The notes: a model not told the origin generated them from the letters alone. DNA of 64,000 bases from an uncultured bacterium (GCA_963704645.1 OY969926.1:640001-704000), one strand, 5' to 3'; shown: positions 9,393 through 18,328, counted from the stretch's first letter. Program-made: numbers and translations.

Positions 9393-9465
9393 GCTTAAAT
9401 AGAATTCGTTTCAGTATTTTAAGTCAATTTTAGGCAGGATATAATGTAGTAAATAGTTTTAAGGC

Positions 9466-9515
9466 TGTTACTGAATAAGTTGACATATACAACCCTGAAC
9501 TTGTTTCAGGGTCTA
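9466..9515. mobile_element. Solo IS481 end fused to a REP-like repeat half
   Basis: 9466-9491 is the reverse complement of the IS end at 36197-36222 (1 mismatch), followed by accctgaacttgtttcagggtcta. Confidence 0.85.
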
Positions 9516-9650
9516 AGTGTGGAAAACAGATATTATAGTTTTCTGGAAAGAGTTTTCTCTAATCTGGCTATATTTGTTTAAAAATAGACTTTACTTTATC
9601 TAAGTTGAAATAAACTTGCTGAAAAATAAACTAAAACATTAACTACTTTC

Positions 9651-9998
9651 ATGACTAAAAACTTGAACATTTGCTTATATTCTTTCCTCTCTGTCTTAGG
9701 GTTTATTGTACCAAATTACATTGTTTTTCAAACTATTATAAAATATGGAACTTACGACTTTGCAAAATTATTTTCCGATATGAACTACAGTTTGTATACT
9801 CAATTTATTGGCGCAGATTTAGGTATAGCAGCCCTTGTTTTTATTGTCTTTTACATTTTAGAAACTAGAAAAAATAAAATTAAATACGCCTGGTTAAGTT
9901 TGCTAGGATGCTTTCTTGTAGGTTTTAGCTTTGGCTTTCCACTATTTTTGTTAATTAGGGAAGTTAGTTTGGGTAAGGGTAAGGGAGGAGCTTTATAG
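9651..9998 (+). CDS. DUF2834-like small membrane protein
   Basis: Three TM segments; DL.I and VG.S.G.PLFL..RE pattern. Confidence 0.7.
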   Translation: MTKNLNICLYSFLSVLGFIVPNYIVFQTIIKYGTYDFAKLFSDMNYSLYTQFIGADLGIAALVFIVFYILETRKNKIKYAWLSLLGCFLVGFSFGFPLFLLIREVSLGKGKGGAL

Positions 9999-10054
9999 TT
10001 TTTGGGCAATAAAAAAGCACCCAAACCGTAGAATTAGGTTGGGGCTTTAAGGTT

Positions 10055-10561
10055 TTATCCAAATTTGAGTCTAATTACGGGTGTAACCCATTTTTCGCTC
10101 CAGTACCAACCAGATTGCGATCGGCACAAAATATTATTGTAACGATTCCTGAAGAAGATTCCATTTGCAGGTTCGTCTTCATGTATGGTTGTTTTTGGAA
10201 ACGAAACAGCCCTTCGTAATTTACACTCAGGCTCAACTTCAATAAATTCAAGTTCTTCACCTTGATTTAACAACCAATTTGTGAAAGGCCCTATTCCATT
10301 GTTTTCAAGTCCGAGAAGCTCCAAAATCTTGTTTTGATCAGAGCTGTTTAAGTCTTCAAAACGCACTTCGCCATTAGAATCTTCTGACCACACAACTTGA
10401 ATTTCTTCAGCATTTGGGTCAAGGCAAAGTTGATGCTCATTATACTGCTCGCCTGGAACATTCGGCTTCCAGTATGGTATAGCACCGCACTGAAAATAAA
10501 TTTGTTTTAAGCAAGTCACTTTATTTTTCGCGACAGGCTGACCTTCGATTGGTTTAATCAA
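10055..10561 (-). CDS. Cassette protein 1, unrecognised paralogous family
   Basis: AGGAG upstream of TTG start (MIKPIEGQPV); shares motifs with ORFs at 10705, 13300 and 14002. Confidence 0.8.
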   Translation of the reverse strand: MIKPIEGQPVAKNKVTCLKQIYFQCGAIPYWKPNVPGEQYNEHQLCLDPNAEEIQVVWSEDSNGEVRFEDLNSSDQNKILELLGLENNGIGPFTNWLLNQGEELEFIEVEPECKLRRAVSFPKTTIHEDEPANGIFFRNRYNNILCRSQSGWYWSEKWVTPVIRLKFG

Positions 10562-10704
10562 AATCTTTTCTCCTTCCAAAAATATAAATGTTGTTTTGAT
10601 TAAGCTAGTCTAATCTTCAAAAGCAAAGCATAAAAATTGGGGTTGGGCAAGGGTTTTGGGCAGTAAAAAAGCACCACATCATAGAATAGATGGGTACTTT
10701 TGAT

Positions 10705-11253
10705 TTAAACACAATTTATATCTTTTACTTCAATAATACTAGGACTTTTTTTAGACATGAAAACAAAATTTTGAATAGTTGGAGTTATCAACAGATCTGT
10801 CTTCCAAGATAAAAAGTAGTCCGTCCAGCCTGTAAACCCTATATACTGTCTACGGTCTGGTTTAGAAATTATTCTCTCAACCCTGGTTTCAGACATTAGA
10901 GTTGGAAACTCATTTACAACTTCTCTTACGACTGCTTCTCCAGTGAGAATTTTCACAAATAGTGAATGGACAGGAATATCAAGAAGATTTAAAACCTTAT
11001 TTTTTCCATCATCCGAAAGGTTGTTGAAATGTGTCGAATTTTGTTCGGTATTAACACAATCTAATTTAGACCATGCAATTTCGCCTGACTCAGCTTCAAT
11101 ACACAAGGAGTATTTAACTTGGGTAGAAACATTGTACTCTGGGTGAATTGAACTTTCTTCACTGCCAAAACAAATAAACAACAAAGAATTTTGTTTATCA
11201 TCATTTTCAATAAAAACAGGTAAACCGTTTTGATAATTAACTTCATACCCCAT
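10705..11253 (-). CDS. Cassette protein 2, same family in N-terminal half
   Basis: AGGAG SD before MGYEV; ICFG, SLC, W, F..L.....KVL.LL motifs. Confidence 0.8.
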   Translation of the reverse strand: MGYEVNYQNGLPVFIENDDKQNSLLFICFGSEESSIHPEYNVSTQVKYSLCIEAESGEIAWSKLDCVNTEQNSTHFNNLSDDGKNKVLNLLDIPVHSLFVKILTGEAVVREVVNEFPTLMSETRVERIISKPDRRQYIGFTGWTDYFLSWKTDLLITPTIQNFVFMSKKSPSIIEVKDINCV

Positions 11254-11396
11254 TATCGATCTCCTAATTAATTTTGCAAGCCGTATATACATTACATAAA
11301 AATTGGGTTTTGGCAAGGGGCTTTGGGCAATAAAAAAGCACCTCACCATTAAAATTGGATTGGTGCTTAAACTTTTTGCCTAAAAAGCGTGCTTGC

Positions 11397-11987
11397 TTAT
11401 TTCCTTAAAACCAATCCCAGATCTGTGATATCTGCTCTTTGGTTAAAAGCAAAAGCTAAAGCTGGTTCGGCTTTTATTTCTGCAAATGCCACACTTTTTT
11501 GTCCTTTTTGTATAAAGTCACTTGTTCCCAATCCTCTGCCCTTGCTATCTACAAGTAGCAATACAGTTGAGGGAATTGGTTCAGCTGTTTCTTCAGGAAT
11601 TTCCAGCCAGTAAATGTTAGCTTTTCTGGTGCGTGGAATGCTGAGTACATCTTTAGTATCTAAGGTAAAACCGCCGATATACTTGTGTTCACCAGTACTT
11701 TCAAAGTATAAAACCTTGAAGTTGTTTTCCGTTAAGGTGGATGCAATTACTACAGAACCAAACTTTCTTTTGTGTAGTGAAAAATATTCTACACCTTTGT
11801 ATTCTTCCGCAATAAGAAAAGTATCCTGATTGTTTTCTGACTTGATACTCAATGTGTTTTGAATATGCTGAATCTGTGCATTGAGTGATGTGGCTTTAAA
11901 ACCAAAAAACTCTTGAACGGGGTGCAAGCTTAGAGTAATTGCTAAAATTACTGCTACAAAAAATAACTTCCAAAAATTCTTCGGCAT
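11397..11987 (-). CDS. Cassette protein 3, signal-peptide/TM hypothetical protein
   Basis: GGAGG SD before MPKNFWKLFFVAVILAITLSL. Confidence 0.75.
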   Translation of the reverse strand: MPKNFWKLFFVAVILAITLSLHPVQEFFGFKATSLNAQIQHIQNTLSIKSENNQDTFLIAEEYKGVEYFSLHKRKFGSVVIASTLTENNFKVLYFESTGEHKYIGGFTLDTKDVLSIPRTRKANIYWLEIPEETAEPIPSTVLLLVDSKGRGLGTSDFIQKGQKSVAFAEIKAEPALAFAFNQRADITDLGLVLRK

Positions 11988-12068
11988 GCTAGAAACCTCC
12001 AATAGTAAATTTTTTCAAAAAAACTAGCTTTTTGTTTATTACACAAAATTGTTTGTAAGGCAAGTGGT

Positions 12069-13207
12069 TGTACCCGTTCACTACATATGATACTTAGGAT
12101 GGTATTGTTGTAGGTATTTCATTGGTGGTATAAATTGTCCAATATCTCTTTTTAAACCCAGATGTGGTCTTTGGTTATTGTAGAAGTCTAGGTACATGAT
12201 TAATTTTAGATTAAAAGCTTGTATATCATCTCTTAGTATCCATAGATTATAATTAGCAAACTCTTCTTCCACACTTCTATTGAATCTTTCTATGTAAGCA
12301 TTCATTTTAGGAGATTTAGGATAGTTCCAGAAATGAGTAATATCTTTAAATTTTAACAGTTCATCAAAGTTCTTATGATTTTCTTGTCCATTGTCTGTCT
12401 GAACTCTTTTAATCTGGTAAGGGAATACATCTTGCATTCTTAAGAAGAAGTCTTTTGTACTATTACTACTTAATGTTTTGTAAGCATATACGAAAGAATA
12501 TCTACTAACTAGATCTACAGCACAGATTAAATATCTTTTTACTCCATTAAGATAAAAGGTTATTGCGTCTAATTGAATTAGATCTCCTGGGCTATTAGGC
12601 TGGTATTCTTTTCTTCTGGTTTTAACTTGCTTCCTAGGTTTTAGTAGTCTTTGTTTAATACTTCCTGTTCTACCGTCTAAATAGACTTGCTTTGAGTATT
12701 TGTAGACTGGTATTATTCTTTGATCTTTAAAAGTAGATATTATTCTGCCGATAGTTGAAATTGAAATAGTTTTTAGTGTTTTACTTGTTTCTTTTAGATT
12801 TTGTTCTGCACAGTAATCATCTAACAATACTTTAAGTTTGTCTTTACCTAGATTAGGATATTGCAATCTAGTTTGTTGAATAAACTCAAGTATTCTCCCT
12901 TGTACATTTGACTGTCTAAATTTATTAGGTCTTTTGCTTTTATCCTTTAAATCGTATTTGTTACCAGCTCCATAATTAAGTTCACAACTTTTTCTCCATT
13001 TCTTCCTCCACCTAATTAAAGTTATTCTGGAAAGTTTACGATTTGAATCTAGAGATAATGCTTCTAATGTAGAATTAATACCATGCTTAAATGAGTATTC
13101 AATTATTTTAAATTTATCTTCCAAAGTGTAAGACATGATCATATGATAGTAGATTTAGGATTATTAATCTACCACCCTTTGGTATCATATGTGTTTGGAC
13201 TTGTTCA
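12069..13207 (-). mobile_element. IS481-like insertion sequence with 5-bp target duplication GTGGT
   Basis: Imperfect TIRs tgtacccgttcactacatatgata / tatcatatgtgtttggacttgttca; gtggt at 12064-12068 and 13208-13212. Confidence 0.85.
12081..13142 (-). CDS. DDE (rve integrase core) transposase, IS481-like
   Basis: PGDLIQLD, VQTDNGQE, SPKMNAYIERFNRS, YNNQRPH. Confidence 0.9.
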   Translation of the reverse strand: MIMSYTLEDKFKIIEYSFKHGINSTLEALSLDSNRKLSRITLIRWRKKWRKSCELNYGAGNKYDLKDKSKRPNKFRQSNVQGRILEFIQQTRLQYPNLGKDKLKVLLDDYCAEQNLKETSKTLKTISISTIGRIISTFKDQRIIPVYKYSKQVYLDGRTGSIKQRLLKPRKQVKTRRKEYQPNSPGDLIQLDAITFYLNGVKRYLICAVDLVSRYSFVYAYKTLSSNSTKDFFLRMQDVFPYQIKRVQTDNGQENHKNFDELLKFKDITHFWNYPKSPKMNAYIERFNRSVEEEFANYNLWILRDDIQAFNLKLIMYLDFYNNQRPHLGLKRDIGQFIPPMKYLQQYHPKYHM

Positions 13208-13299
13208 GTGGTATTGTTTTAGGGCAATAAAAAAGCACCGCTCCTTAAGTTAGGTTTACGGTGCATTACTATGTGTTGAATTAAATTGAGGAAAAAGAT

Positions 13300-13809
13300 C
13301 TACCCCATATTCTCAACACGACTAATGGTATAATCTTTAGCAATATGGTAAGGCAAAAACTCCCATACATCTGTGGCTTTATACCGGCAGAGAAGTTTGT
13401 CTGGTTTTCCTTTTTTAATCGATCGGATTTGAATTGGGTTGTTCATTTCGTTACTTACAAAACTGCCAACACGCGTTGGTTCATTGCAATGCATCGAAAG
13501 TTCTAAACCTTTTCCTGTTTTAAGGAATTCAACAATTGGTTGGTATTGCCACATTCCAACAGAATCTAAAACATTTTCTTGAGTGCTGCAATCTAAAGTC
13601 CGAAATATTAGTTGCGTTTGAGGTACGTGGTGTTTGTTAATCCAAACTAACTCTCTGTTAGTTCTGCACAAAACCATTGTTTCGCCAACCTCAAGCGGTA
13701 TCCAGGTGAGTAAAAATTGCATATTTGAATTTCCACCAAACACCAAAACCTCGTCAGCAGTGTTCTGCTCGTCAACAGGTTGACCTTCAATAGTTTTTCG
13801 TATAGGCAT
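13300..13809 (-). CDS. Cassette protein 4, unrecognised paralogous family
   Basis: GGAG SD before MPIRKTIEGQPV; LCR..W, FL.TG.GLE, LLCR....W. Confidence 0.8.
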   Translation of the reverse strand: MPIRKTIEGQPVDEQNTADEVLVFGGNSNMQFLLTWIPLEVGETMVLCRTNRELVWINKHHVPQTQLIFRTLDCSTQENVLDSVGMWQYQPIVEFLKTGKGLELSMHCNEPTRVGSFVSNEMNNPIQIRSIKKGKPDKLLCRYKATDVWEFLPYHIAKDYTISRVENMG

Positions 13810-14001
13810 AGCCGTCTCCACTGTTCCAAAATAAAAAATTACAATTAAGTTTCCCTAATCTTTCAAAGAAAAGCATAGAAATTGGCTTTAGGCAAGAAAG
13901 TGTTGCAATAAAAAAGCACCGTTCCTGAAAGGCAGGTTTACGGCGCTGAATTTGATTTTAAATTTGATGAAAATGAAGAAATTAGTTTTGAAAGCTAATT
14001 G

Positions 14002-14526
14002 TTAATTGTCACTAACATTCCAAATTTGTCCTGGGTCGTGGGCATAAAATTGCCATTTGTTAGTTTTATAGAGTCGACAAAGCCATTCTGGTCCAAGATT
14101 TGTGGTTCTATACACAATTGGGTAAGTTACTGCCTCATGGTCATTTTTTGGTCTGGTCCCTGCTTTGTGCAAATCATTACCTTGCAATGCTTCATCTGAA
14201 AATTCCAAACCATTTCCATTCACTAAATAGTGAAAAAATAATTCGCTTCCTCCAAGTTTGGACACAATTTCATCTTGCGATTGTTTTCCAAGCTCAGATA
14301 TGTGCAAACAGCTGTTTTCGGTTTCTCGTGAAAGTTCGTCTACACTTACCCAGCCAAAGTTGACCAGGTTTCCATCCAAAACCCTACACAGAAACATAGG
14401 TGTATCTTGTAGTGGAATCTTCCACATTGCAATAATCGGTTTAGTTGCATCTCCAAAACAAATTAGAGTAGCATTTTCACCAGCACCAGAAATTACTAGC
14501 TGTTCTTCCACTAGTTTTGTTTTCAT
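14002..14526 (-). CDS. Cassette protein 5, unrecognised paralogous family
   Basis: AAGGGG SD; ICFG, FLCR, YL.NG.GLEF, WLCR....W. Confidence 0.8.
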   Translation of the reverse strand: MKTKLVEEQLVISGAGENATLICFGDATKPIIAMWKIPLQDTPMFLCRVLDGNLVNFGWVSVDELSRETENSCLHISELGKQSQDEIVSKLGGSELFFHYLVNGNGLEFSDEALQGNDLHKAGTRPKNDHEAVTYPIVYRTTNLGPEWLCRLYKTNKWQFYAHDPGQIWNVSDN

Positions 14527-14692
14527 CTTCTTTTTCCCCTTTTTAAATTGTAAATTGATTTGCGGTTAAGTTTTCCTCAATCTTTTAAATTAGAGCATAG
14601 AAATTAAGGTTGTGCAAGGGTTATAGTCCAATAAAAAACCCTCTGTGTTGCAGAAGGTAGTGATTTATTTTAACCTATAATTTCTTTAAATA

Positions 14693-15208
14693 TTACATTA
14701 TAGTTGGTTCTACTTTTTTATTGTAGAATATATAAAATAATCCTAAATAAATTAGAGATGTAGCTATGCAAATCTCATTGGCATAAACAGTGGCGTAATT
14801 AAAACCTCCTGGCCACAATCCAAAGAAGTTAAAATTAGAAAGTCCAGCAAATATTAATATTAAAAGACTTGCACCGCTCTGTAAATAGGCATACCCCGTC
14901 TTTAAGTCTGTTAAATAAATTAGCAACTCTGCTAAGCTAACTGCTGACGAAATTGTCATTGATAGTGCCATGAAATAAAATAAACCTTGTGGGCTTAATA
15001 AATTGTAAGCACAGGTAGCGAAAATACCTAAGAAAAACAAGCTTACACTTTTCATGCCATTGTACTTTCCGCTGACGAAAAAATGATGAGTACAATATAT
15101 GTTTACTAATATGAAGGAAGCTACGCAGAACCATGAAATTGGCGATGTGCTTAGTACTATTAGCCAAAGATTATTTAGTTGTGCTGAATAGTTTAAACCA
15201 ACTGTCAT
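14693..15208 (-). CDS. Cassette protein 6, polytopic membrane protein
   Basis: About five hydrophobic segments; AGGA upstream of MTVGL. Confidence 0.7.
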   Translation of the reverse strand: MTVGLNYSAQLNNLWLIVLSTSPISWFCVASFILVNIYCTHHFFVSGKYNGMKSVSLFFLGIFATCAYNLLSPQGLFYFMALSMTISSAVSLAELLIYLTDLKTGYAYLQSGASLLILIFAGLSNFNFFGLWPGGFNYATVYANEICIATSLIYLGLFYIFYNKKVEPTIM

Positions 15209-15452
15209 TTGTTTTGTCCTAAAATAGGTTAACTTCCTTTTTAAATCATAGAAAAGGGCTAATGTCAAAAATCTATTTCGTTTAATTAAATAACTAAAAA
15301 CAGCTTTATGAAACTTTGTTAGTTAATTAGAATTATCTTAATTATTTGCACAAGATTCTAGTAATAATATTAAAAATTATACATGTGCAAGGGTTTTTGG
15401 ACAATAAAAAAAGCACCCTAACCATCGAACTAGGTTGGGTGTTTTCTGGAGC

Positions 15453-15677
15453 TTAGTCCATTCCAATGAAATCTTTAACTCTCTGTGTCATTGCGTGATC
15501 AAGACTGGTTAGTTCGATTTCACCATCAACCTTTGCTGCTTCGCAATGAAACACAAGTTGACTTTCAGAACTGACTGATACTACAGTTCCAGCAGTAAGT
15601 GAAACACGTTCTCCACCTACTAGAACTGCATTTACAGTTTCTGTCATTCCAATATTTACTGCTTCTATAACTTGCAT
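15453..15677 (-). CDS. Cassette protein 7, 74-aa protein, possibly a single-domain family member
   Basis: GGAG SD, own promoter and terminator; C-terminal LTSLDHAMTQRVKDFIG resembles FEDLNSSDQNKILELLG. Confidence 0.75.
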   Translation of the reverse strand: MQVIEAVNIGMTETVNAVLVGGERVSLTAGTVVSVSSESQLVFHCEAAKVDGEIELTSLDHAMTQRVKDFIGMD

Positions 15678-15838
15678 AATAAACTTCTCTCCAACGTAAA
15701 TGTGTATGATGGTATTATACCGATCCTTGTAAGATAAACAGAAAAGTTTAAACTAGGCAAGTAACTGAATAAACAAAGGTAATAAAAACCCTTTAATACT
15801 TGACTAAACTTACCACTAAAATCACTTTTAGGTTAATT

Positions 15839-18328
15839 ATGCCTTTGCCTTCTGCGTACAATCCTAAGGAATATGAATACCAAATTTACCAGGAATGGTT
15901 GAAGTTAAAGCTTGGATCTCCAGAGGTGCAGGAGGAAATTCAGGCTACCCCGAAACCTTTGGTTTCACCCCTTACCAGGGGTACTGGTGAGCTGGATTAT
16001 AACGATGTTGGTAATGCCAACAATGGCGGTGTGGTCGCCTCATCTACGGATACATACTCTGTTGTGGTGCCTCCGCCAAATCTGACTGGGGATTTGCATA
16101 TGGGACATGCTTTTGAGCATTATTTAATGGATACTTTGGTTCGAATTGCCCGTCAGGAAGGTAAAACAACTTTATATTACCCAGGGGTTGATCACGCTGG
16201 AATTCAGCTGGAAGGTGTTATAAATAAGTTGATAAATAAAGGTGAGTTTGATGAGCAAATTAAACAATTAGATAATCTTACTAGTAACCAAACCAATGCT
16301 AAAGTTTCTGACTTTTTTAATTTTGATACTGCAGATAGAGCTAACTTTTTAAAACAAAATTTTCCTGAAACTTGGCTACAATTTGCTTGGTCAAAAGTGC
16401 GTGTTTGGCGTGGTAACCAACTAAAACAAGCTGAAAAACTTGGCGATTCACCCGATTTTGACCGTTTACTTTTCACCCTAGATCCAAGAGCTGTGGATAT
16501 GGTAAACTATGCTTTTATTAAGTACTGGCAAGACGGTTTAATTCACAAAGGTTCCTATTTAATTAACTGGTCGGTAGCTTTGCAAACTGCTTTGTCTGAC
16601 GTTCCCGAAGATATTTCCCACGAAGAAAGGAAGGATCCGTTTGTTACTTTTGAGTATGTTAATCAAGGGTCTGTTGTTACATGGGTAGAAAACTCATCAA
16701 AGTTTAATGATGACAATAAAATTCGCATAATGAACAATGCAATAATGAGAATTAAGGTGGCAACAGTTAGGCCTGAAACTGTATTTGGGGATGTTGCTTT
16801 GGCTGTAAACAAGAATATCTTTAGAAATAAATTGCTAAGTTATGAAGACTCATCTTTTGGCAGATTAACTTCTCAAGATGTTGAAAATATTATCTATGAT
16901 ATTGAAAATGGTTATATAAAAATTAAATACATGATCAAAGGCTTGATCTCTAATATTAAATTAATTTTAGGAGAAGACGACGAAGTTGATCCAAACTTTG
17001 GAACGGGGGCTTTAAAAATTACGCCTGCTTCAGATATTGTAGATTATAATATTGCTGTTAAACATGGAATTTCCCATTTACCTCAGTCTGTTGGTAGAGA
17101 TGGAAAACTTACAGAAATCTGCGGCGAGTTTGCAGGTTTAACTGTAGAGCATGGTAGAATGGCAGTTATTAAAAGGTTAATTGAAGATGGTCATGTACCA
17201 ACAGTTGAAGGTTTTGAAGAAAACAGGGAAAGTGTGCAGAATAAACCTTCCGTAGAAAAATTATCTGACCCTGAATTTAGAAGTTTAAGCCTTGAAAAAC
17301 AGAAAGAATATTTGCAGAAAAACTATCCTCAATATCAAGTTGATTGGAATTATGTTCACAATGTTACAATTTGCGAACGCAGCAAGACAGTTGTAGAACC
17401 ATTAATTAGTGAAGAGTTTTTTGTAGATTATTACGCCAAGTTTAAATTTAACCCAAAGATTAATTCAAAAAATCAAAACACCAAAGTACCCCTGGTAAGG
17501 GGTGAAACCGTAGGTTTCGGGGTAGCAATTGGCCAGGAAACAAGCCTACAACAATTGGCTATTGCTGGAATTCATAAGACAAATTTCTTTCCTGAAGATT
17601 ATAAGGAAAGGGCTTTGAATTATTTTGAGACTATTAAAAATTGGTGTATTTCCCGTGATTTAATTTGGGGACATAATATGCCGGTTTGGTATAATTTAGA
17701 TGTGAATCCAGAGCGCAGGTTTTATTCGTTTAAGGAAATACAAACTCAAAATGGAAATGGAGACCAGGAGGTCTCCGCTACGGATCGATTCAAAATTCAG
17801 GTTGAAAAACCTGCTGAGCCTGGAAATTGGGTTCAAGAAACTAAAATTTTAGACACTTGGTTTAGTTCAACACTGTGGCCGCTTACAACGCTTAACTTTT
17901 TAGATTTTGCCAATGGTAAACAAGGAACTGATTTTGAAAAGTTTTACCCAACCCAAACTATGACTACTGCTAAGGAAATTTTCTATGCCTGGATTGTACG
18001 TATGATTATGACTGGAATGTACTTTGCTGGACAAACTCCGTTTGAAAATTATTTGGCTCACGCTTGGGTGTTAGACGATAAAGGTAAAAAAATGAGTAAA
18101 AGTTTAGGAAATGTAATTGATGTTGCCGATCAAATTGAAAAATATTCATCCGATGCTGTTCGTTTGGGTATGTTAGAAAAAAGTATTCCTGGAAGAAATA
18201 TTAGATTCGGTGGAAAATTAGGTGATGCAGCCAGCGAAAAATATCGTAATTTTGGGAATAAATTATGGAACGTAGCTAGGTTTTTGGAAGGGAAGGAAGG
18301 GGATATTGTAGGCAATACTATTATCTAG
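15839..18328 (+). CDS. valS: Valyl-tRNA synthetase, N-terminal (catalytic + editing) part
   Basis: PPPNLTGDLHMGHA, PGVDHAGI, ATVRPET, GTGALKITPASD, WCISR..WGH, DTWFSS, KMSKSLGN; ends just after NKLWNVARFL. Confidence 0.95.
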   Translation: MPLPSAYNPKEYEYQIYQEWLKLKLGSPEVQEEIQATPKPLVSPLTRGTGELDYNDVGNANNGGVVASSTDTYSVVVPPPNLTGDLHMGHAFEHYLMDTLVRIARQEGKTTLYYPGVDHAGIQLEGVINKLINKGEFDEQIKQLDNLTSNQTNAKVSDFFNFDTADRANFLKQNFPETWLQFAWSKVRVWRGNQLKQAEKLGDSPDFDRLLFTLDPRAVDMVNYAFIKYWQDGLIHKGSYLINWSVALQTALSDVPEDISHEERKDPFVTFEYVNQGSVVTWVENSSKFNDDNKIRIMNNAIMRIKVATVRPETVFGDVALAVNKNIFRNKLLSYEDSSFGRLTSQDVENIIYDIENGYIKIKYMIKGLISNIKLILGEDDEVDPNFGTGALKITPASDIVDYNIAVKHGISHLPQSVGRDGKLTEICGEFAGLTVEHGRMAVIKRLIEDGHVPTVEGFEENRESVQNKPSVEKLSDPEFRSLSLEKQKEYLQKNYPQYQVDWNYVHNVTICERSKTVVEPLISEEFFVDYYAKFKFNPKINSKNQNTKVPLVRGETVGFGVAIGQETSLQQLAIAGIHKTNFFPEDYKERALNYFETIKNWCISRDLIWGHNMPVWYNLDVNPERRFYSFKEIQTQNGNGDQEVSATDRFKIQVEKPAEPGNWVQETKILDTWFSSTLWPLTTLNFLDFANGKQGTDFEKFYPTQTMTTAKEIFYAWIVRMIMTGMYFAGQTPFENYLAHAWVLDDKGKKMSKSLGNVIDVADQIEKYSSDAVRLGMLEKSIPGRNIRFGGKLGDAASEKYRNFGNKLWNVARFLEGKEGDIVGNTII
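15944..15985 (+). repeat. 42-bp double-hairpin palindromic repeat, copy A, in-frame in valS
   Basis: gctaccccgaaacctttggtttcaccccttaccaggggtact; 40/42 identical to reverse complement of 17485-17526. Confidence 0.9.
17485..17526 (-). repeat. 42-bp palindromic repeat, copy B, in-frame in valS
   Basis: Inverted copy of 15944-15985. Confidence 0.9.
17759..17781 (-). repeat. GTAG-type REP-like palindrome in-frame in valS
   Basis: Minus strand gtagcGGAGACCtcctGGTCTCC; a related degenerate element lies at 16025-16047. Confidence 0.65.

Follow-up and report, generated by a model that had tools for sequence, protein, structure and literature searches.

A candidate hypervariable island of single-gene cassettes on the chromosome of an uncultured bacterium, with junctions resembling the PeSL motifs of T4-type phages

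In the hyperplastic regions of T4-type phage genomes, promoter-early stem-loops (PeSLs), which are promoter/stem-loop motifs of ~100 bp, lie beside orphan open reading frames (ORFans) (Arbiol et al. 2010, PMC2839356; Comeau et al. 2014, PMC4122927). The indels and replacements that distinguish closely related phages end at the motif, with mini-circles as intermediates; both the mini-circles and the promoter and terminator activity were shown, and there are ~50 copies over several regions of the phage genomes (PMC2839356; PMC4122927). Here, we describe an array of seven small genes on the chromosome of an uncultured bacterium, in which the junctions between genes share a composite repeat. The array lies in a stretch of 64,000 nucleotides (GCA_963704645.1 OY969926.1, positions 640001-704000; hereafter, the window) of a genome assembled as one contig of 1,272,640 bases with 33% G+C; the genomes of relatives measure 0.7-1.6 Mb. 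The genes (A1-A4, B, C and D) are all on the minus strand, at 10055-15677 of the window, between a gene for a DUF2834 membrane protein and valS, and the junctions are numbered J0 to J7 (Table 1). On balance, we lean towards the explanation that this is a lineage-specific, hypervariable, PeSL-like island of single-gene cassettes at a fixed chromosomal site, remodelled by recombination at its junctions. A sequence-only reading of the same DNA had placed seven co-oriented genes and their junctions here, with one end that has a terminator only and another that has a promoter only; gene coordinates and the junction alignment bear out this layout and put the two ends at about 9998-10046 and about 15714-15760, respectively. 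For comparison we used two relatives, a genome of the same genus (G001) and a metagenome contig (L013); the window genome is referred to as G000 where the three have to be told apart.

The junction repeat is real and is confined to the array locus. A full module opens with a hairpin whose 5′ arm and loop vary while its 3′ arm, GGTGC, is conserved; a T-run and ATTGCCCAAAACCCTTGCC follow, and a short spacer then leads to a -10-like region with TATGCT. A profile search (nhmmer) of the 1.27 Mb genome returned seven significant matches, all seven inside the array: the five junctions used for training scored 60-77 bits, and two half-modules outside the training set scored 31.0 bits (E 1.6e-7) and 27.9 bits (E 1.4e-6), against 13.2 bits (E 0.053) for the best match outside the array. 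When junctions were left out of the profile one at a time, every one was regained at 26.6-50.9 bits, with nothing outside the array above 16.3 bits. The 18-mer GGTGCTTTTTTATTGCCC has five matches at up to three mismatches in the window, where 0.17 would be expected, and in the whole genome all five matches at up to two mismatches are inside the array. Within the genome the junction cores (52 columns) are 60-84% identical to each other, against 36-44% for the coding DNA of A1-A4 in a protein-guided alignment; the amino acid identity of these four proteins is 16-31%. A profile-and-genome scan had been proposed in the sequence-only reading, and its outcome is that junction similarity is specific to the array; the same figures confirm the claims made there of one shared junction module and of junctions that are more conserved than the genes. 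The further claim, that this module measures 70-80 bp throughout, holds for a shared core but not for the length: the shared part is a core of ~50 nt and reaches ~100 nt only ahead of A-family genes, and both the terminator of J5 and the long leader after J6 deviate from the pattern. Beyond the window genome, the module pattern was found in two of the 26 genomes of the family, G000 and G001 only. A DNA-pattern scan of species genomes found the full module at one of 59 loci (L065), the other 58 being rejected as chance matches to the terminator tail, and none of 24 viral loci carried it.

What lies between the conserved flanks differs among the relatives. L013 spans the whole interval, with valS, a predicted promoter, an orphan ORF of 86 aa, a full junction, an ortholog of A1 (58% identical), the terminal terminator, the DUF2834 gene and a NUDIX gene. 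The G001 interval runs from the end of an insertion sequence (IS) at a contig break through a short ORF, a full junction, an A-family gene and the terminal terminator to the DUF2834 gene; its A-family gene is closest to A3 (32%, E 1e-19) and is 23% identical to A1. The cassette number is seven in the window genome and two in each of L013 and G001. A1 and its L013 counterpart are the only ortholog pair, and none of the seven window cassettes has a close counterpart in G001. Comparing cassette content across relatives had likewise been proposed from the sequence, and the content proves not to be fixed.

The limits of these differences coincide with the module. The identity of L013 and G001 is 88% on the valS side and 95.6% across 5.7 kb that begin precisely with the terminal hairpin; in the stretch enclosed by these flanks, the 107-nt junction is all that aligns (86% identity). 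Two near-identical backgrounds thus carry different paralog subfamilies in one slot, and the differing content ends cleanly at the module. Between the window and L013, homology at the far end restarts exactly at the GGTGC of the terminal module. In both comparisons, homology therefore breaks at the junction and at either the terminal hairpin or the GGTGC core. Hairpin type is also uncoupled from gene type, A1 being followed by one type in G000 and by the other in L013. Two pairs of similar hairpins had been noticed in the window (10017 with 15411; 13234 with 13915), and by eye the members of each pair are indeed alike. The terminal J0, which has no promoter, still holds the first half of the module.

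A1 itself is a mosaic. Between the window and L013, DNA identity is ~77% in the flanking genes, ~85% in the junction and the first ~205 nt of A1, and ~50% in the remaining A1. The proportion of synonymous differences (pS) in A1 is 0.29 over the first 67 codons and 0.82 over the last 94 codons, with flank values of 0.52 (valS), 0.675 (DUF2834 gene) and 0.674 (NUDIX gene); the 3′ part is saturated at synonymous sites relative to its L013 ortholog. Where the encoded amino acid is shared, third positions differ at 10 of 54 codons in the 5′ part of A1, 20 of 39 in the 3′ part and 272 of 846 in the flanks; in Fisher tests, the 5′ part departs from the pooled flanks with p 0.035 and the 3′ part with p 0.022. 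Together, the A1 mosaic, the restart at GGTGC and the reassortment of hairpins point to an exchange of segments that have the junction or the conserved 5′ part of the gene as one limit and the module core as the other. In the alignment of A1 (10055-10579) with its ortholog (L013:10007-10513), we also observed that the break is sharp, near codon 68, and coincides with a predicted domain boundary. The idea of a platform for gene capture or shuffling, put forward from the sequence, agrees with the variable content and with breaks at the junction core; the capture of foreign genes does not fare as well, since paralogy among four of the seven speaks for tandem duplication.

These four genes, A1-A4, are very divergent members of one orphan family restricted to the genus. 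A3 and A4 match each other with a blastp E of 6e-6 and the other pairs match more weakly; a profile of all four matches exactly those four genes in the window genome and one gene in G001. The alignment of the family is without any conserved stretch. When 1.84 billion representative proteins were searched with the A-family profile, there were 12 matches, of which 11 were real and six of these were query rows; P0010 (1228 aa) was dropped as a low-complexity repeat protein. The family is present in two of 41 relatives and in two of the 27 genomes of the order, and a search of viral contigs found it in none. No cassette gene of the seven matches a curated family in Pfam, PHROGs, PADLOC or NCBIfam; for the A family, Pfam returned sub-threshold noise only, the other three nothing usable and ESM Atlas only unnamed clusters (at most 0.91). 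The description of the seven genes as orphans thus stands as regards curated families, but they are not mutually unrelated, A1-A4 being paralogous. An AlphaFold2 model of A3 built on a seven-row alignment (pLDDT 86.8, pTM 0.84) predicts a beta domain at either terminus, with two helices between them. This model has no fold match in Foldseek against the PDB (best E 0.11), in a wide VIA-align search (best Z 2.6) or in BFVD (best E 0.12). The weak top rows of the structure searches were SAWADEE, FMRP tandem Tudor and SH3, which for a predicted structure would suggest small beta-barrels at most. By eye, the A-family proteins have no signal sequence.

Genes B and C are lineage-restricted orphans as well, with no family for B in the four collections named above and none for C in Pfam or NCBIfam. 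B has one homolog, 66% identical, among 5.8 billion proteins. The sole relative of C in G001 is 31% identical, sits at another locus and is without the module. We located this gene at L078 (G001:C34) 1414-1998, with a secreted-protein gene on one side and, on the other, a GNAT gene that neighbours leuS; at the corresponding leuS/GNAT place the window genome has a 209-nt spacer (genome positions 998900-999109), and its only C copy is the one in the array. Relocation is hinted at only by the presence of a C-family gene at a different locus in a relative. Three further ORFs were considered as possible A-family members, without support in any case: D (hmmsearch -0.6 bits, hhalign 0.3%); the short ORF of G001 (10.8 bits, 3.3%); and the 86-aa ORF of L013 (2.6 bits, 0.6%).

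The expression signals predicted at the junctions are of two kinds. All 11 folded hairpins have a T-run directly after them and fold at -9.4 to -16.7 kcal/mol, with z ≤ -2.85 for 10 of the 11, and there is a Shine-Dalgarno sequence ahead of every gene start. The promoter part of the module is proposed at the level of a consensus. A direct repeat in the junctions, TTGCCC-N7-TTGCCC, is possibly the site of a shared regulator. A conserved leader occurs only ahead of A-family genes, at J1, J4 and J5 and at the junctions of G001 and L013. Its copies lie past the -10-like region (window 10600-10640, 13845-13885 and 14572-14612; L006 470-500 in G001; L013 9940-9975) and hold an imperfect inverted repeat, GATTAG and CTTAATC 5-6 nt apart, with a second block, AATTTACATTTT, ahead of the ribosome-binding site. 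The inverted repeat could be an operator or an RNA hairpin. By eye, the N-terminal extension of the database protein P0005 resembles a translated leader.

In the explanation that we favour, a cassette would comprise a promoter, often a conserved leader, a small ORF and an intrinsic terminator, and each composite junction would unite a cassette's terminator with the promoter of the cassette that follows. The island would grow mainly by tandem duplication of a fast-evolving A-family unit. Its content would be remodelled by homologous recombination between junction copies and between the conserved 5′ parts of genes; inside one genome this would delete or duplicate cassettes, and across related lineages it would replace them. 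The junctions would be kept alike by their terminator and promoter function, possibly by the shared regulator site, and by serving as exchange tracts. The model needs no local recombinase, and RecA is encoded in the window genome. The promoter and terminator activity of the junctions, and recombination as the cause of the differences, are deduced here from sequence comparison. The cassette genes would presumably provide dispensable accessory functions with fast turnover, e.g. as immunity or interaction proteins.

Many of the same observations could be accommodated by a plain tandem cluster of paralogs: a promoter-gene-terminator unit was duplicated, the proteins evolve fast, the regulatory DNA is under purifying selection (one regulator, tight termination), recombination at junctions is incidental, and B, C and D are old residents or diverged members. 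Paralogy of four of the seven genes and a leader found solely before A-family genes are what such a cluster would give. Junction identity is graded (60-92%), without strong homogenisation, and the exact runs shared within the genome are just 9-21 nt. Moreover, D, the short ORF of G001 and the 86-aa ORF of L013 all align, weakly and non-significantly, to the same stretch of the A-family profile. Left unexplained by the paralog cluster, however, are: differing paralog subfamilies with clean module ends despite 95.6% identical flanks; a junction and A1 5′ part that are closer than the flanks between G000 and L013, while the 3′ part is far more distant; a first module half that is kept in the promoter-less terminal junction; and the reassorted hairpin and gene types.

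Several points nevertheless weigh against recombination at the junctions as we propose it. Generic scans found 21 promoter-like sites against 22.6 in shuffles and four terminator-like sites against 3.9, with no excess of either, and picked up just one junction terminator and one junction promoter. The -10 element is ambiguous: by eye in the alignment, TATGCT is only 12 nt past TTGCCC, and the second candidate, 17 nt past TTGCCC, is a weaker hexamer whose conserved TG would make it a possible extended -10. Exact identity between junctions within the genome comes in the short runs given above, which are at or below what RecA-dependent exchange usually needs, so exchange events would be rare. The comparison rests on three genomes, and in one of these, G001, a contig break within a multi-copy IS cuts the interval. 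The synonymous discordance has modest statistics, from one gene pair with 54 and 39 codons, and the 5′ part of A1 against valS alone gives p 0.064. Differing content in relatives could stem from differential loss by any deletion mechanism, and the likeness of the junctions could be due to nothing more than strong purifying selection on a regulatory site that they share. A sequencing run contributed seven fragments of 151-374 nt (depth ~3), all but one identical to the window and none with a joint, and says nothing either way. It is because of the few genomes, the short identity and the possibility of purifying selection that a co-regulated paralog cluster, although we think it unlikely, retains appreciable weight. 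A bolder form of the explanation that we favour, which we offer only tentatively and would not expect to hold in full, makes the array a chromosomal counterpart of PeSLs in an ultra-small bacterium: the junctions would be working substrates of recombination, and at this one site cassettes, and even half-genes split where the two domains meet, would leave as circles and pass from lineage to lineage, diversifying an orphan family with a new fold that the organism uses in interactions with hosts, competitors or phages.

Insertion sequences occur in and around the array. A 1139-nt IS (12069-13207), present in the genome as four 100% identical copies, splits J3, the B/A3 junction. Its transposase has rve and rve_3 domains, and the best NCBIfam family is IS481 at 129.9 bits, below the cut-off of 224. 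The element is an ordinary multi-copy IS, and its insertion separated the T-run from the -35-like element; without it J3 is, by eye, a complete module in which the spacer is longer by a few bases. In addition, a solo fragment of ~60 nt (9457-9523), 85-94% identical to the ends of an 8-copy IS of the window genome, sits in the NUDIX-DUF2834 spacer, adjoining the array. The assembly break of G001 is between valS and the array (L007 3470-3592, L006 1-116) and inside a multi-copy IS, the 23-nt end of which occurs at 10 places in that genome, mostly ~100 nt from contig ends; the window genome has one related copy of ~920 nt (genome positions 460086-461027). The IS in J3, the IS at the valS edge of G001 and the solo fragment suggest that the neighbourhood tolerates insertions. 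This tolerance, and the existence in other bacteria of mobile composite regulatory repeats of similar size, would suit a module that is itself mobile, i.e. a MITE-like (miniature inverted-repeat transposable element) or Correia-like element with a terminator and a promoter that was inserted repeatedly between genes. All seven copies, however, are in one array with none elsewhere in 1.27 Mb, the module is limited to one genus and, by eye, it has neither terminal inverted repeats nor target duplications of its own; we regard this explanation as close to refuted.

Site-specific recombination was also considered. In an integron-like or dif-like system the hairpin junctions would be sites for a recombinase acting in trans, e.g. 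the single tyrosine recombinase of the genome, and cassettes would be captured and excised as circles. The junctions are imperfect palindromes in which the 3′ arm, GGTGC, is conserved and the loops vary, and in this formal respect they resemble folded recombination sites; cassette content does differ between relatives; and rAID-1 arrays of Bacteroidales are described as pairing repetitive intergenic sequences with a recombinase (10.1101/471110). The sole PF00589 match of the genome (883678-884421), however, is ~230 kb from the array. A pattern search found an attC-like RYYYAAC...GTTRRRY pair in none of nine junction segments, the only pair in the region being inside the IS transposase gene. 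Each cassette has a promoter-like element, unlike the promoterless cassettes of integrons, and the succession of A-run, stem and T-run is the normal look of an intrinsic terminator. Such a system is therefore very improbable. From its sequence the array had been called integrase-free, with no attC cores noticed; no attC pair and no linked tyrosine recombinase were found, but an IS481-like DDE transposase with rve domains does lie inside it.

Table 1. Features of the array and its flanks (positions in the window)
Feature	Position	Strand	Evidence and remarks
Conserved flank: DUF2834 membrane protein gene, convergent with the array	9651..9998	+	Pfam PF11196, E 7e-25; syntenic in G001 and L013
J0: predicted terminal terminator hairpin, T-run and first module half, without the -35/-10 half	9998..10054	-	nhmmer match outside the training set, 31.0 bits, E 1.6e-7; fold -13.1 kcal/mol, z -3.25
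Cassette gene A1, A family	10055..10579	-	Likely start TTG at 10561, giving 168 aa as in the database entry
J1: full module with conserved leader	10600..10697	-	nhmmer 77.2 bits; leave-one-out 50.9 bits; hairpin -15.6 kcal/mol, z -7.06
Cassette gene A2, most divergent A-family member (P0001)	10705..11253	-	
J2: full module without the A-type leader	11272..11367	-	nhmmer 72.2 bits; leave-one-out 31.3 bits
Cassette gene B: orphan with hydrophobic N-terminus, probably secreted or anchored	11397..11987	-	
J3, promoter half (CTTGCC... to the -10-like region), parted from the terminator half by the IS	12035..12068	-	Sequence and alignment
IS481-like insertion sequence within J3	12069..13207	-	Transposase 12081-13142; 5-nt target duplication ACCAC
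J3, terminator half	13208..13264	-	nhmmer match outside the training set, 27.9 bits, E 1.4e-6; hairpin -14.6 kcal/mol
Cassette gene A3, A family	13300..13809	-	blastp against A4, E 6e-6; against the G001 gene, E 1e-19
J4: full module with conserved leader	13845..13945	-	nhmmer 72.2 bits; leave-one-out 36.4 bits; hairpin -16.7 kcal/mol
Cassette gene A4, A family	14002..14526	-	
J5 (A4/C junction): module with divergent terminator arm	14572..14662	-	nhmmer 62.0 bits; leave-one-out 30.5 bits; sole junction terminator recognised by the generic scan
Cassette gene C: multi-pass membrane protein	14693..15208	-	
J6 (C/D junction): module, then a leader of ~135 nt ahead of C	15345..15440	-	nhmmer 60.3 bits; leave-one-out 26.6 bits; TTGTCC-17-TATAAT by the generic scan
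Cassette gene D: orphan of 74 aa	15453..15677	-	
J7: promoter-only end, TTGCCT and downstream TATAAT	15714..15760	-	Sequence; weak alignment with the module; no nhmmer match
Conserved flank: valS, divergent from the array	15800..18328	+	G001 76-91% identical (protein); L013 78% identical (DNA)

Homologs of the DUF2834 gene occur in eight of the 26 genomes of the family; in four stretches from other genera, it adjoins neither valS, the NUDIX gene nor three other flanking genes of the window. A search of Rfam (E ≤ 1) returned only RAGATH-23, at the start of valS (15757-15844, plus strand), with 25 bits against a gathering threshold of 92.6 and E 0.15, which is probably a chance match. Outside the window, at genome positions 1,265,000-1,272,640, there are periodic self-matches every 600-800 nt with six partners each; this tandem repeat region at the end of the genome is possibly a repetitive giant gene or a second array.

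How does the array compare with described systems of gene turnover? It shares with integrons its co-oriented single-gene units, the hairpin-forming repeats between them and a content that varies among relatives. It has neither an intI gene nor attC core sites, however, and its cassettes have their own predicted promoter and terminator signals, where an integron has a single Pc promoter. The array does not work like an integron, two defining features of which it lacks. The vsp, vlp and vpma loci of mycoplasmas also hold tandem paralogs with a highly conserved upstream cassette and rapid turnover of the coding sequence. Their genes encode lipoproteins and are switched by a linked site-specific recombinase or a homopolymer tract; at the array there is no linked recombinase or homopolymer switch, and the A family is, by eye, without a signal sequence. 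Closer in general appearance are the rAID-1 arrays (Ross et al., 10.1101/471110), which are likewise long, co-oriented and chromosomal, with small fast-evolving genes, repetitive intergenic sequences and signs of gene turnover. They are defined by a 5′ XerD-like recombinase, which is absent at the array, and their genes are described as homologs of known immunity genes, whereas the array genes matched no family in Pfam, PADLOC, PHROGs or NCBIfam.

The greatest likeness is to the PeSL regions of T4-type phages. In both cases there is a composite intergenic motif of ~100 bp, made of a stem-loop terminator and a sigma-70-like promoter (the latter at consensus level here), that is repeated between single ORFans in a variable region between conserved genes. 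In both, the motif marks the limits of insertions, deletions and replacements that set close relatives apart (from three genomes here), a swapped gene brings its own expression signals (predicted here) and there is no dedicated recombinase. The differences are that the array is on a bacterial chromosome, at one locus and in seven copies, where the phages have ~50 copies in several regions; that most of its cassettes are paralogs of one family; and that its stem-loop is always upstream of the -35 element. Similarity of the array to phage DNA or proteins was not found: there was no meaningful PHROG match, and the viral contigs searched held neither the module nor the A family. The literature that we found on PeSLs is almost all viral (the exception being a lipopolysaccharide review), with no bacterial chromosomal array in a search that left most subscription journals outside and is thus no proof of absence.

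Shuffling of single genes via regulatory repeats, without a dedicated recombinase, has been worked out for T4-type phages. If the explanation that we favour is true, cells too can turn genes over by this low-cost route, in the present case within a reduced genome that has little accessory DNA, and the cassette genes are the fast-changing interface of the organism. The junctions are short enough for assays of termination, promoter activity and recombination, making the locus a compact and testable case, and it also yields an orphan protein family with a confidently predicted structure that has no match among solved or viral predicted structures. Judged by analogy, the array would work like a PeSL region, while not being a PeSL by membership, as it does not lie in the genome of a T4-type phage.

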